Below, piece after piece: positions 25,031 to 34,098 of a stretch of DNA of 64,000 nucleotides. Each line of letters opens with the position of its first letter. The first letter of the stretch is position 1. This DNA comes from Alphaproteobacteria bacterium (GTDB lineage: Bacteria > Pseudomonadota > Alphaproteobacteria > UBA828), in the NCBI GenBank assembly GCA_965214705.1, contig OZ243972.1:2464001-2528000 (forward strand), given 5' to 3'. The notes below the pieces were generated by a model that was not told the DNA's origin, searched no databases, and worked only from the letters and a program-made list of their open reading frames with translations. Both the position numbers and the translations under genes were made by a program.

Positions 25031-26510
25031 TAACCTTGAGCGTCGGCCCCTCAGACCGATAGAAGCAGTAAATGTTCCTGTTCAGACATCCAGTCTTGCT
25101 GCTGCGCCGAAGCGAGGCGCTCCAGACCGCGCCGATCACGGTCGCGTTCTGGACGTTGGCTGTCATCGCTCTGACCAGCCTGCGGGATCTGCATCTTTGG
25201 GGGATGCCGCAGGTCGAGGTGGTCATCGCACGGGCGACCATGGCATGCATAGTCATCCTGGTGGGCTTGGTGGGCCTGGTTGGAATTCGATGCTTGTTTG
25301 CCTGGCGGAAGTCCGGCTCACGCGTCTCTGTCCTGAGCACAGTGGGCGGAATGCCCGGCGTGTTGTTGCTCGGTGCAGTGGCATCCTATCTGGCGATCGG
25401 CTTTGCCGTGATGGACGAGGCGGACTGGCGGCCGGGCACGGCTGAGTCACTGAGGTTTGCAGTACTCTCTTTCGGCGTGCTTGTGGCTGCCGTAGTCGGT
25501 GGCCGCGCGGTGCTGGAACGAGTCGGGGCCGACCGGTTGTTGCGGGGCGTGCTTGTCGTCCTGATTTTGAGTTGCGCCATCATTCTCGCTTCGCCGGTCC
25601 TGCGCGACCTCGGCATCCTGCCGCCTTATAGAATTCCATTCCGCCTGACCGGCGCTTTCGTCGATCCCAACGACGCCAGCTTGATCGGCAGCATGACGGT
25701 GGGACTCGCCGCGGCGTTCCTGACCAATGGCGGGCCGCGCACGCTCGGTTGGGTGGGCCTGGCCGCCGGCGTCGCCGCAAGCCTGGGGTCGGCGTCCAGA
25801 ACCGCGTTGGTCATACTCGGTGCGCTGGCGATCGTGTTCCTATTGATCCATGTCCGCAGCAAACCAAGGGCCTTCGTCCTGATTTTGGCGGCCACGGTAA
25901 TGGTCGCGATTGGAGGATTGGCCGGCGTTGCGTTCTTCTCCGGAGGCCTTTCCGAGTGGTTTAGAGCGCGGAGCGGTATCAACGACGCACTCGGGGAAAA
26001 ACTGTTCTGCGACCCTTCGCCGACCGACAGCCCTGGCACGGACTGCGCCGTCCTGCTGGCAACGAGAGACATCCTGGCCGGAGACATTGCCCTCAACTGG
26101 AGCCGCACCGTCCCCGTCAACCGCTGGCGGGGCGTGACGGTGGAAGGCCCGGAGGGACATGTCACCGGGCTGCATCTCGCGGGACTTGGATTGAACGGCC
26201 GTATCCCCCCGGATCTTGGCCGCCTGGACCGCCTCGTTTCGCTGTCCCTTGGACGCAATCGGCTCACCGGTCGCATTCCGCCCGAGCTGGGAAATCTGGC
26301 GAGCCTCAAGTATCTGGTCCTGAGCTACAACATCTTGACCGGGGCTATCCCGCCGGAGCTGGCGAACCTTGAGAACCTCAAGGAGCTGTGGCTGAGAAAC
26401 AACCGCTTGACCGGCCATGTCCCGGCCGCTCTCGCAGGGCTCGACCTGTCCGTCCTGCGTCTCTCGGGCAACGACTTCGACTCCATTCCTCCCAAAATCA
26501 ATGCCGTCGC

Positions 26511-27760
26511 CGACCACGATCTCGGCCGCTTCGTGCTCTGCCTGCCGCCGCCTCGAACCAGCCCCGCGTTGTTCGAGGACTGCACGACGCTGTTGGCGGT
26601 GAAGGACACGCTGGCCGGCGACGCCCCGCTCGACTGGCACGCGGCGGTCTCCATCGGCTTGTGGCAAGGCGTGACCGTGGGCGGTCCGGAAGGTCGTGTC
26701 ATCGCGCTGGATCTGTACGGGAAAGGGCTGAACGGACGCATTCCCCCGAGCCTCGGCAGGCTGGACGGCCTCGTCTCGTTGAACTTGGCCGCCAATCGGC
26801 TCACCGGTTCGATTCCGCCGGAGTTGGGACAACTCGTCGACCTGCGCGTCTTGGCCCTAGATCGCAACGCCCTGACCGGCACCGTCCCTGCGGAACTGGC
26901 ACGACTCCCCGGGCTCAGGGCCTTGTGGTTGAAAGAGAACCGCCTGACCGGCCCTGTTTCGCCGGCGCTGTTCGATGTCCCTGACCACGATCTCGGCCGC
27001 CTCGTGCTCTGCCTGCCGCCGCCTCGAACCAGCCCCGCGTTGTTCGAGGACTGCACGACGCTGCTGGCGGCGAAGGACACGCTGGCCGGCGACGCGCCGC
27101 TCGATTGGCACGCGGCGGTCCCCATCGGCTTGTGGCAAGGCGTGACCGTGGGCGGTCCGGAAGGTCGTGTCATCGCGCTGGATTTGTACGGGAAAGGGCT
27201 GAACGGACGCATTCCTCCGAGACTCAGCGGGCTGGACGGCCTCGTCTCGTTGAACTTGGCCGCCAATCGGCTCACCGGTTCGATTCCGCCGGAGTTGGGA
27301 CAACTCGTCGACCTGCGCGTCTTGGCCCTAGATCGCAACGCCCTGACCGGCACCGTCCCTGCGGAACTGGCACGACTCCCCGGGCTCAGGGCCTTGTGGT
27401 TGAAAGAGAACCGCCTGACCGGCCCTGTTTCGCCGGCGCTGTTCGATGTCCCTGACCACGATCTCGGCCGCCTCGTGCTCTGCCTGCCGCCGCCTCGAAC
27501 CAGCCCCGCGTTGTTCGAGGACTGCACGACGCTGCTGGCGGCGAAGGACACGCTGGCCGGCGACGCGCCGCTCGATTGGCACGCGGCGGTCCCCATCGGC
27601 TTGTGGCAAGGCGTGACCGTGGGCGGTCCGGAAGGTCGTGTCATCGCGCTGGATTTGTACGGGAAAGGGCTGAACGGACGCATTCCTCCGAGACTCGGCA
27701 GGCTGGACGGCCTCGTCTCGTTGAACTTGGCCGCCAATCGGCTCACCGGTTCGATTCCGC
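26511..27760 (+). repeat. Near-perfect 471-bp tandem repeat (about 2.6 copies) encoding LRR modules
   Basis: CCACGATCTCGGCCGC recurs at 26514, 26985 and 27456 with almost identical intervening sequence. Confidence 0.9.
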
Positions 27761-31831: not shown

Positions 31832-32283
31832 GACGACGCCCGGCCCAGGCCCGAGGCCACCGCAACAATCCGATCGACCGCGCTCTCCACCGGAAGGCGA
31901 ACGACCACGCCTAGCGCCTCGATCGCCACCGTCCGCTCGGACGTCACGCTATCAACCACCACGGGAACAAATGGCGGTGCAGAGCCACCAATCCGAGCGC
32001 CCGGAAGAGTTCCCTCCCGCGCGCGCCGCCGCCACTTGGTCAGGGTCGTATCGCTGACGCCATGGCGGCGCGCGACCGCCGCAACCGAAGAGCCCGGCTC
32101 AAAGCTCTCCGAGACAATCCGCGCCTTCTCATCGTCCGGCCAGCGTCGCATGGGGGCCGGCTCAGACGGAGCCGGGGCGGCTCCCTCAGAAGCTGGGATC
32201 TCAACCGAAGCAACAGCGACACCGTCGCCAGATGCCAAAATCGAATCTGTCATCGCGATCTCTCCTGTGTGGCTCGTGGTCAA
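31828..32283 (-). CDS. tnpA: IS66 accessory protein TnpA (HTH)
   Basis: RRWPDDEKARIV...SVAAVARRHGV...KWRR. Confidence 0.9.
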   Translation of the reverse strand: MTTSHTGEIAMTDSILASGDGVAVASVEIPASEGAAPAPSEPAPMRRWPDDEKARIVSESFEPGSSVAAVARRHGVSDTTLTKWRRRAREGTLPGARIGGSAPPFVPVVVDSVTSERTVAIEALGVVVRLPVESAVDRIVAVASGLGRASS

Positions 32284-34098
32284 GGCGGAGAGTCAGCCCC
32301 GAAATCAGATCCGCTGGAAGTATGGGGGCCCGATACCGCTTACGAAGCACTGCCCCGCCTGTATGACGACTGCGCCACGTTGTTGGCCGCTCGGGACGTG
32401 CTGGGGACGTGCTGGCCGGCGACGTCCAACTAAACTGGAGCGACGCGGTCCCCATCGGCTATTGGCGGGGTGTCACCGTCGGGATGCCCAACATCGCCGG
32501 CGAGGCCGCGGAAGGGCCGCGGGTCATCGCCCTGGATCTGTCGCACGTGGGACTGAACGGGCGGATTCCCGCAGAGCTGTCGGCTCTGGACGCCCTTGCC
32601 GTTCTGCGTCTTGGCAACAACCGGCTTGCGGGACCGATCCCGCCGGAACTGGGCGCCCTGACCGGGCTGCGGACGCTGGTACTGGAGAACAACGCGCTGA
32701 CCGGCGAGATCCCGCCGGAACTGAGCGCGTTGCAGGCACTCGTTTGGTTGCGTCTTGGCGGCAACGAACTCACTGGCGGCATCCCGCAGGGACTGACCAC
32801 ACTGACCGGTCTGCGGGTGCTCGCGCTGGAGAACAACATCTTGACGGGCAACGTCCATCCGCAGTTTGGCAACCTGTCGCGTCTGGAGGAGCTGCGGCTC
32901 GAGAACAATCGTTTGCACGGAGCACTCCCCGAGGCTCTCGACCGGTGGGCTCATCTTGCGGTCCTCCGTCTGGGCGGCAACGCGTTTGCCGACTGCCTTC
33001 CGGCTACGGCGCGAGCAGCGCAGGTACGGCACAACGATCTGGATTCCGCCGATCTGCTCTGCGATCCTTCGCCCTGGACCAAACCGGGCCTGTTCGAAGA
33101 CGGCGCGCGTCTGATGCGCATGCGCGACACCCTGGCCGGCGACGCGCCGCTGAACTGGAGCTACGCTCGCCCCGTCGCGTCCTGGCAGGGCGTCACCATC
33201 GGTCGAGGGGGTCGCATCATCGCACTGGACTTGCGGGACATGAACCTGACCGGGCGGATCCCCCCGGAGCTGGGCGAGCTGGCCCATCTCCATCTGCTGC
33301 GGCTCGACGGCAACCGACTCACCGGCCCCATTCCACCGGAACTGGAAAACCTGACTCGTCTGACCATGCTGTCGCTGGACGGCAATCGCCTGATGGGTCC
33401 CATCCCGCAGGAGATCGCCAATCTGTCGAATCTCAGGCAATTGTGGCTGGCCCACAACCGTCTCACCGGTTCCCTCCCGCCCGAATTGGCCGGAATCAAG
33501 CGTCTCTCCCTGGCCGTCGCGGATAACGACTTCCAGGGCTGCATGCCGTGGCAACTGCGCGATCTGCGCAGCCACGATATCGATGACGGCTTCATCTGCA
33601 CTGCCCTGGCGAAGGGCAGACCGTTGCTTTGGAGACTGGGATTCGAGAAGGCCATGGAGGCGCCCGTCTTCGGTCACGGCCTGAGAACGTTGGCATATAT
33701 GGAAGGCGCCCCCATCGGACATCACGGCAAGCCGTTGGGCCCCCACAATCTCTACCTGACGTTGCTGGGCGAAGCGGGCATCGTCCCTCTGCTGCTGTTT
33801 CTGTCCGCCATCGTCCTGCTGCTGCGCGCGCAATGGGGCGCGCCGAAGTCGCTTGCCCGGGATGTGATCGTAGCCTGGGTCATCGTCATCGCCTTGTACT
33901 GCACGGCCTTCCAGCATCTACTCAAATTGGAAGCGTTCATGTTTCTCGCCGGGTTGAGTGTCGCGATAGGGGCGGTGCGCAGCGCCGGTGACCGATGTCC
34001 TGCGAAGGTGTGACAGTTGGCCGATGGCAGACTCCAGAGTAAGCGGTATCGGGCCCCCATACTTCCAGCGGATCTGATTTCGGGGCTGACTCTCCGCC

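Follow-up and report, generated by a model that had tools for sequence, protein, structure and literature searches.

Enzymes of the Wzy_C/WaaL fold make the outermost sugar coats of bacteria, and how they choose their acceptors and control the length of their chains is largely open. The classical Wzy polymerase is a protein of some 400-450 amino acids (aa), found once per cluster and accompanied by a separate co-polymerase, Wzz. Passages of PMC12800693 describe how the active-site arginines of such enzymes coordinate the pyrophosphate of undecaprenyl-pyrophosphate (Und-PP), with a histidine as the proposed catalytic base, and how the O-oligosaccharyltransferases (O-OTases) PglS and PglL share the Wzy_C domain and a WaaL-like active site. 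Leucine-rich repeat (LRR) proteins are reported as enriched in sponge microbiomes in passages of PMC9531527, where changes of the O-antigen are discussed separately. Both surface glycans and eukaryotic-like repeat proteins have been suggested to serve in recognition inside a host, and they are not known to have been linked in one molecule. Here we describe a gene that joins a glycan enzyme to LRR modules, LRR-Wzy_C, located in a 64,000-nucleotide (nt) stretch (hereafter the window) of the genome of an Alphaproteobacteria bacterium of the UBA828 lineage (assembly GCA_965214705.1, contig OZ243972.1, here C1:2464001-2528000; genome of 7.92 Mb in three contigs). This gene is the dead copy of one for an inner-membrane enzyme of about 2050 aa with a WaaL fold and an array of nine LRR modules. 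We consider it probable that the array is periplasmic and that the intact enzyme acts as a Wzy-like polymerase in a horizontally shared cassette.

Two open reading frames (ORFs) on the forward strand, P0001 (1507 aa, 25072-29595) and P0002 (534 aa, 32409-34013), are two pieces of this single gene, as a preliminary description of the stretch had proposed from its letters. The 5' piece (25072-29591, forward strand) runs from the N-terminal transmembrane (TM) domain through LRR modules 1-7 to half-way along the module-8 cap. The 3' piece (32352-34013, forward strand) completes module 8 and adds module 9, followed by the second, C-terminal half of the WaaL-fold domain. The two pieces are separated, within the module-8 cap, by a 2752-bp element of the IS66 family (copy 1; 29592-32343, reverse strand), which starts with GTAAGCG, ends with CGCTTAC and carries three IS66 ORFs: a helix-turn-helix TnpA (31828-32283), TnpB (31481-31831) and a DDE transposase (29672-31414), matched by Pfam HTH_Tnp_1, TnpB_IS66 and DDE_Tnp_IS66. 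The element is flanked by the 8-bp direct repeat GAAGCACT (29584-29591 on the left, 32344-32351 on the right), so that three ORFs, GTAAGCG-type termini and an 8-bp target duplication are all found together; duplications of 8 bp are the habit of IS66, and the repeats themselves are visible in the window sequence. The other lesion is a frame-shifting tandem duplication of 11 bp, consisting of two copies of GGGACGTGCTG (32393-32403 and 32404-32414, forward strand). By coordinate arithmetic only, the sum of 4520 nt (25072-29591) and 1662 nt (32352-34013), less 11 nt, is 6171 nt in frame, enough for 2056 codons and a stop, which agrees with the 6171 nt and 2056 aa reconstructed earlier.

The reconstruction is right, and the window copy is a pseudogene, because a paralog elsewhere in the same genome keeps the undisrupted sites. 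This intact gene of 2031 aa (C1:497254-503349, reverse strand) is collinear with the window gene at 92-97% nt identity (85% aa identity in the N-terminal domain; 93.6% nt identity over the 3' piece, 32352-34013, with a length difference of 11 nt). Where IS66 copy 1 is inserted in the window, the paralog has just one GAAGCACT, an empty IS66 site, and it is 11 nt shorter precisely at the site of the duplication. Nor does it have an IS66 beyond its stop codon, which is again an empty site, this time for a second IS66 (copy 2; 34039-36790, forward strand) that starts 25 nt past the stop codon of the window gene, between it and the genes for glycosyltransferases of family 4 (GT4). Copy 2 is 100% identical to copy 1, inverted relative to it and flanked by the target duplication ACTCCAGA (34031-34038 and 36791-36798). 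On the upstream side lies a multi-copy mobile element of about 2.67 kb (22370-25038, forward strand) with a tyrosine-recombinase ORF (22439-23479) and an IS91-family Y2 transposase ORF (23486-24727), in which Pfam finds Phage_integrase, Y2_Tnp and Zn_Tnp_IS91. It ends 34 nt upstream of the ATG of the LRR-Wzy_C gene, and homology with the intact paralog begins only at 25036. The window gene is thus broken by the IS66 insertion and the 11-bp duplication, and two further mobile elements stand between it and, on one side, its upstream region and, on the other, the GT4 genes that are its partners. As the IS66 insertion alone disrupts it, the gene is broken whether or not the 11-bp duplication is real. 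The window copy is a decayed remnant in a genome swamped by insertion sequences, and the biology lies in its intact relatives.

The Wzy_C/WaaL hallmarks that had been read at both ends of the gene are confirmed by profiles and by structure. The Pfam Wzy_C match is split around the LRR block, with profile positions 3-71 on residues 230-301 of P0001 (20.2 bits) and positions 81-149 on residues 401-465 of P0002 (34.8 bits, for a cut-off of 31.7); in the intact paralog, Wzy_C scores 36.6 bits in two stretches, over the 31.7 cut-off. The N-terminal multi-TM half of the domain (25072-26001, forward strand) contains the motifs RLTGAFVDPND (aa 191) and SASRTAL (aa 240); GRPLLW and PHN, followed by TM helices, lie in the C-terminal half of Wzy_C (33609-34013, forward strand). 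AlphaFold models were obtained for P0019 (839 aa with two LRR modules, its N-terminal domain 67% identical to that of the window; alignment of 60 sequences, predicted local distance difference test (pLDDT) 83.4, predicted template modelling score (pTM) 0.72) and for the LRR-less P0103 (459 aa; 53 sequences, pLDDT 86.2, pTM 0.87), and compared with about 48,000 representative solved chains. The WaaL ligase 7tpj_B is superposed on P0019 with a Z score of 22.2 (root-mean-square deviation, rmsd, 5.3 A; 356/403 residues) and on P0103 with a Z score of 22.3 (rmsd 4.5 A; 351/403 residues), the next-best membrane folds for these models being FtsW and RodA (Z 12.6-14.1). As the P0019 alignment spans model residues 51-832, both halves flanking its LRR modules build one WaaL-like domain.

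When the LRR-less relatives are combined into a profile and aligned with WaaL (7tpg_B; E 6e-9), the S-R, R..LW and HN motifs fall on WaaL R191, R265 and H313. The corresponding residues of the window gene, all on the forward strand, are Arg243 of P0001 (25798-25800), Arg404 of P0002 in GRPLLW (33618-33620) and His446 of P0002 in PHN (33744-33746); these positions are near-invariant in the family alignments, and all three are kept in the window copy. Since the aligned active site faces the periplasm in WaaL, the LRR block would lie in the periplasm too, in the loop just before the second catalytic arginine, and the Cys pairs of the module caps (C-x11-13-C) fit an oxidising compartment, in line with this placement. 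The position at which the family bears its LRR modules is a low-confidence loop in the P0103 model (295-308). In the preliminary description, the insert took the place of a short loop after the SR motif; its position in a periplasmic catalytic loop stands, but two TM helices, not just a loop, lie between the SR motif and the LRR insertion.

The array comprises nine modules of 132-240 aa each, some 1600 aa altogether, in which N-terminal caps with the Cys pair are followed by 24-residue plant-type LRRs. Modules 1-7 and the start of module 8 occupy 26005-29591 (forward strand), with caps 1-7 at aa 324, 503, 660, 817, 994, 1206 and 1338 of P0001; the module-8 cap is the one cut by IS66, and the ninth module is in P0002. 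Pfam LRR_1 (E 2e-65 in P0001 and 1e-31 in P0002), LRR_8 (E 8e-53) and LRR_4 score far above their cut-offs, and there are 25 strict matches to the motif LxxLxLxxNxLxGxIPxxL. Of the three models named in the preliminary description, Wzy_C and LRR_8 were thus matched, but LRRNT_2 was not among the matches in the Pfam scan of the window proteins. The NCBIfam scan of the gene products gave only sub-threshold matches in the LRR region, all of them LRR-only and including Xop LRR models. The likeness to plant receptors, first seen in the repeat pattern, extends to the fold: every one of the top 50 Foldseek matches of the P0019 model is either the ectodomain of a plant LRR receptor or PGIP, and a single module is superposed on SERK2 (6g3w_D; Z 20.6, rmsd 1.9 A, 160/188 residues, 34% identity), BIR2 (6fg7_B; Z 20.5, rmsd 2.0 A, 35% identity) and SOBIR1 (Z 20.1), over 160-162 residues; in SERK2 and BIR2 the matched part takes in the cap region. 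Other bacteria, too, have plant-type LRR proteins, as shown by a 37%-identical match in Altibacter lentus, so that a eukaryotic origin of the modules is not established.

Modules of the intact paralog have positional orthologs in P0012, P0016 and P0024 (72-87% identity) and in the more distant P0056 (67-80%), and modules inside one protein are 48-67% identical, with the exception of recent tandem duplicates (100%). Because positional orthologs are more alike than modules within one protein, the array appears to be made of nine different, individually conserved units and not of a uniform spacer, which would favour specific binding partners over a plain ruler. A pure length ruler was considered as the sole role of the array and rejected, as the modules retain their own identities across genomes. 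Modules 2-4 of the window gene (26506-27822) are 471-nt tandem repeats with 96% nt identity, and modules 2 and 3 of the paralog are 100% identical at the protein level; this near-identity suggests that the number of modules changes by recent unequal recombination.

Intact proteins in which Wzy_C is split by LRRs, which had been proposed as the thing to look for, are numerous. A search with the N-terminal 330 aa found 87 other cluster representatives, 78 of them longer than 1250 aa and 69 at least 1800 aa long; Wzy_C is listed among the precomputed Pfam domains of 74/87. With the first 310 aa as query, a full HMMER scan gave 114 matches at E<=0.001 among 1.84 billion representatives. The family forms a series, from proteins of about 430-480 aa with a contiguous Wzy_C and no LRR, through forms of 580-690 aa with one module and of about 840 aa with two, to giant forms with nine or ten. 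In a tree of the N-terminal domains (135 rows, 4/139 sequences having been dropped as fragments shorter than 400 aa; midpoint root, quick method), all 79 rows longer than 1250 aa fall in a single clade of 94 rows with full support (Shimodaira-Hasegawa-like approximate likelihood ratio test 100). The sister of this clade mixes forms of at most 500 aa with forms of 501-700 aa, and the outgroups are all of at most 500 aa. Natural forms with no, one or two modules make the role of the modules directly testable by swap or deletion. Full-text literature searches (supplementary files and subscription journals being outside their scope) turned up no paper describing an insertion of LRR modules into the catalytic loop of a Wzy_C enzyme, in agreement with the earlier view that the fusion was undescribed. 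Both the Wzy_C enzyme family and the LRR repeat class are already known; what is new is the insertion architecture, the module-number series and the cross-phylum cassette. The existence of this large family, of its shorter and LRR-less members and of the cassette goes beyond the preliminary description, as do the pseudogene status of the window copy and the presence of four copies in the genome, one of them intact.

The LRR-Wzy_C gene heads a cluster of glycan genes, as had been noticed from the letters. It is followed by three tandem GT4 genes (36807-38027, 38024-39283 and 39392-40696, forward strand; Pfam Glycos_transf_1 and Glyco_transf_4), for which NCBIfam gives sub-threshold matches only, the PglJ model scoring best and far below its cut-off. 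Next to them is a gene for a multi-TM protein of 443 aa, a putative flippase of the Wzx type (Polysacc_synt; 40710-42041, forward strand), for which the Pfam and NCBIfam scans gave no match and the ESM Atlas a feature score of 0.99 to the Polysacc_synt and Polysacc_synt_3 clusters, to be taken as a lead only. On the opposite strand is a gene for a glutamine amidotransferase of the AsnB type (41967-44006, reverse strand; Pfam Asn_synthase and GATase_7), which scores 477 bits with TIGR01536, over the cut-off, and 551 bits with the XrtA/PEP-CTERM amidotransferase model TIGR03108, under the cut-off of 817.

Full-length relatives (60-78% identity) are encoded at twelve loci in ten chromosomes of metagenome-assembled genomes (MAGs), the titles of which span at least five phyla: Pseudomonadales (three), Gammaproteobacteria (two), Nitrospirales, Vicinamibacterales, Gemmatimonadota, Longimicrobiales and Candidatus Entotheonella. 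One to four GT4 genes lie directly downstream of the LRR-Wzy_C gene in 10/12 of these loci, the Wzx-like protein is encoded in the fetched stretch of 8/12, and a methyltransferase is kept upstream of the cassette in five. Two to four tandem LRR-Wzy_C genes, typically one giant and the remainder of about 800 aa, are interleaved with the GT4 genes in 8/10 loci (L001-L010). Across the ten MAG genomes, identity to the proteins of the window is 74-85% for the first GT4 protein (GT4a), 75-84% for the Wzx-like protein and 62-82% for the C-terminal half of Wzy_C, compared with 56-68% for the conserved 964 aa of RpoB. At the same time, the N-terminal domain has no match at E<=1e-10 in 400 further genomes sampled from the phylum of the window, 328 of which are of high quality. 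Cassette proteins that exceed RpoB in identity across phyla, along with their absence from these 400 genomes, indicate that the whole cassette has spread horizontally among unrelated bacteria, and point to strong habitat-specific selection. This makes the cassette a candidate factor in determining life within a host, which is probably a sponge.

Carrier genomes each have 1-3 ordinary contiguous Wzy_C genes besides the LRR forms, so the LRR forms are extra copies. The chain-length regulator Wzz (PF02706) was not found in the window's own genome or in 4/5 carriers, and Poly_export (PF02563) was not found in 5/5 carriers, both models being short and such misses weak evidence; the single Wzz match in a carrier (G401) is more than 1 Mb from the cassette. 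These misses leave room for the LRR array as the partner or length control of the enzyme, and would also fit protein O-glycosylation.

On this basis, the GT4 enzymes would build a sugar unit linked to Und-PP, the Wzx-like protein would flip it to the periplasmic side, and the intact LRR-Wzy_C enzyme would transfer it there, most likely as the polymerase (Wzy-like) step in the making of a surface glycan. The LRR array, tethered at both ends beside the active site, would serve as nine specific binding modules for periplasmic partners or acceptors and not as a receptor facing the host. The Wzy-like role is favoured because the gene sits with glycosyltransferases and a flippase, because one of the 1-3 ordinary Wzy_C genes of each carrier could be the ligase, and because the LRR-Wzy_C gene duplicates together with GT4 genes.

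Several points weigh against this interpretation, or against parts of it. Sequence and fold do not separate polymerase, ligase and O-OTase, and the presence of multiple tandem Wzy_C genes at one locus is unusual for a classical O-antigen cluster. We know of no precedent for an LRR array of about 1600 aa in the periplasm, its role there being conjecture; its periplasmic placement is derived from the alignment with WaaL, and the folded proteins were the natural relatives P0019 and P0103 in place of the window protein. The 443-aa protein is probably a Wzx-type flippase, as judged from language-model similarity. The carriers are probably co-occurring marine sponge symbionts, a habitat deduced from one MAG title (Candidatus Entotheonella) and general background. 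As for the lesions, public contigs from four runs of four studies are short and fragmented over 32250-34100, none spanning the whole stretch; one X1 and one X3 contig cover the duplication site, both without the 11-bp duplication, and X6 and X8 give no cover there. One X1 record aligns from 32343 on, with 144 unaligned letters ahead, which is compatible with an unbroken gene. The second copy of the 3' fragment in the same assembly is also without the 11-bp duplication, which could therefore be recent and strain-specific, or else an assembly error.

A possible, though on balance unlikely, alternative is that the enzyme is an O-OTase similar to PglL or PglS, which would transfer the glycan to Ser/Thr of periplasmic or secreted proteins, the modules recruiting the acceptors or the Pro/Ser/Thr-rich linkers of the array being the acceptors. 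Besides the Wzy_C domain and WaaL-like site that O-OTases share with it (PMC12800693, in the passages cited above), LRR modules are protein-binding folds, and their identities are kept across genomes, as specific partners would predict. The absence of Wzz and Poly_export matches in most of the genomes mentioned above and the ranking of PglJ as the best, if far sub-threshold, model for the GT4 genes point in the same direction, as do weak C-terminal matches to TfpM (16.6 bits) and PEP_O_lig_1 (18.9 bits). These two scores are, however, far under the cut-offs of 600 and 188 bits of these curated models, and no further O-OTase-related model was found in the Pfam and NCBIfam scans. Moreover, known general O-glycosylation systems use one transferase, as opposed to 2-4 in these loci.

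More speculative, and doubtful at present, is the idea that the cassette, with its long and short LRR-Wzy_C forms, GT4 genes, flippase and amidotransferase, is a horizontally shared 'membership badge', specifying a common surface glycan or glycoprotein coat for bacteria from unrelated phyla in one host, probably a sponge, with the nine individually conserved, SERK/BIR-like modules as a built-in selector of acceptors or partners that programs glycosylation or polymer length. If true, glycan-assembly enzymes could be directed by a principle that is new, and the cassette would at the same time be a convergent symbiosis factor.

It seems decidedly unlikely that the enzyme is instead a ligase of the WaaL type, transferring finished glycan to lipid A-core or another lipid acceptor while the LRR array serves as a dock for the Lpt bridge or for other machinery of the envelope. 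WaaL is the sole standout among solved structures (Z 22.2-22.3), and the Arg/Arg/His site aligns with it, but WaaL is also the only Wzy_C member in the structure searches, so that the match gives the fold and not the subtype. The ordinary contiguous Wzy_C genes (1-3 per carrier) could fill the role of ligase, and the LRR-Wzy_C gene is found among GT4 and flippase genes, in several tandem copies.

We regard it as highly improbable that the LRR array is a host-facing receptor or adhesin at the cell surface that binds molecules of a sponge or other host, with Wzy_C mainly as its anchor. The appeal of this idea lies in the LRR proteins among the eukaryotic-like proteins (ELPs) enriched in sponge microbiomes, according to passages of PMC9531527, in the resemblance of the modules to plant co-receptor ectodomains and in the spread of the family over several phyla. 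Both ends of the array are nevertheless fixed to an inner-membrane enzyme, in which it sits where a periplasmic loop is expected, and the catalytic residues stay conserved, which would be needless for a mere anchor. The groups named in the carrier titles, furthermore, all have an outer membrane. Direct sensing of the host, one of the roles offered in the preliminary description, is thus unlikely, with an array that would be periplasmic on the inner membrane of outer-membrane-bearing groups. An artefact of assembly or annotation, in which unrelated LRR and Wzy_C genes were wrongly joined, might be suspected in a repeat-rich genome with 8.7% estimated contamination and fragmented short-read contigs, but was rejected with near certainty given the uninterrupted 2031-aa paralog in the same genome, the 69 proteins of at least 1800 aa with the same architecture in independent assemblies, the 12 loci in 10 MAG chromosomes and the natural one- and two-module forms that fold as one WaaL domain plus LRR modules.

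Some relatives and neighbours of the cassette deserve mention in their own right. In P0026 (2230 aa), GT4 domains (PF13439, PF00534 and PF13692) are fused to an LRR-Wzy_C protein, a hint of cooperation between the enzyme and the downstream GT4, although a lost stop codon could account for it as well. In the Candidatus Entotheonella MAG, the gene after the Wzx-like one (L008:25340-26872) is a short and more distant relative (44% identity in the N-terminal domain, 57% in the C-terminal half), its halves being about 500 nt apart with little or no LRR insert. Proteins of 450-900 aa with weak GDSL/SGNH matches only flank the cassette in five loci (L002:768-7637, with five copies, L001:25935-29542, L003:3350-6040, L006:25766-28369 and L007:26076-27854); this family may be a glycan-modifying esterase or acyltransferase travelling with the cassette. 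Within the glycan cluster of the window, a fragment of an IS66-family transposase (44162-45454, forward strand; NCBIfam transpos_IS66, 203 bits) sits between the AsnB-like gene and a fourth GT4 gene (45952-47211). Elsewhere in the window, a HigB-like toxin domain (Pfam, E 2.7e-10) is found at the C-terminal end of the 368-aa ORF read-out at 17437-18543 (reverse strand), which is probably a small toxin-antitoxin gene with an over-extended ORF.

Mobile elements have left their mark on the whole genome. It holds four N-terminal domains of the LRR-Wzy_C family, only the paralog being intact and three being broken; a third LRR-Wzy_C copy, on contig C3, is interrupted by two IS66 elements. Full-length IS66 copies with at least 99% identity number 31, in addition to 26 partial or diverged matches, and the integrase and IS91 element upstream of the window gene has 66 matches of about 2.6 kb in the genome, with shared ends at 22370 and 25035-25039. 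Such massive expansion of insertion sequences is typical of recent host restriction. A third IS66 copy in the window (56271-59024, C1:2520271-2523024) is 99.1% identical to the other two. The unit formed by an IS66, the 1.68-kb 3' gene fragment and another IS66, which corresponds to window 29592-36790, has a second copy spanning C2:702265-707103 (contig end) and C1:1-4098 (contig start), with GTTGAACA as both outer flanks, an 8-bp duplication around the whole unit. Because GTTGAACA brackets the entire unit, the two inverted IS66 copies appear to have acted as a composite transposon that carried the gene fragment along, and contigs C2 and C1 probably adjoin.

Compared with known systems, the LRR-Wzy_C enzyme is closest in structure to WaaL of Cupriavidus metallidurans (7TPG/7TPJ; PF04932), with which it shares the multi-helix membrane fold, the Arg/Arg/His positions and the Wzy_C model, but it is only 14-17% identical to it, has some 1600 aa of LRRs inserted before the second Arg and belongs to a GT4/flippase cassette with tandem copies. 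It is like Wzy polymerases in being a Wzy_C-family membrane protein encoded beside glycosyltransferases and a Wzx-like flippase gene, and unlike them in its LRR array, in the 2-4 paralogs per locus and in the lack of a Wzz match in its own genome and in 4/5 carriers. PglL, PglS and TfpO also have a Wzy_C domain and a WaaL-like site, and their extra periplasmic parts shape the substrate cleft, according to passages of PMC12800693; their extra domain is, however, C-terminal and not made of LRRs, and the TfpM score of LRR-Wzy_C is 16.6 for a cut-off of 600. A single module, with its N-terminal cap and 4-5 plant-type LRRs of 24 residues, resembles plant SERK2, BIR2, SOBIR1 and PGIP, but LRR-Wzy_C has neither the kinase nor the single-pass anchor of plant co-receptors and carries nine modules in one enzyme loop. 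Another combination of Wzy_C with protein-binding repeats is found in Wzy_C proteins with C-terminal TPR (tetratricopeptide) repeats, which are appended at the end, outside the catalytic loop, and are TPR instead of LRR. ELPs, finally, are as a rule described as proteins that are secreted or displayed at the surface and that target the host. The LRR-Wzy_C family is similar to the ELPs of sponge symbionts in bearing LRRs, a type of protein enriched in sponge microbiomes (passages of PMC9531527), and in its occurrence in many phyla, including Candidatus Entotheonella. Unlike in those proteins, the LRRs here belong to an inner-membrane glycan enzyme.

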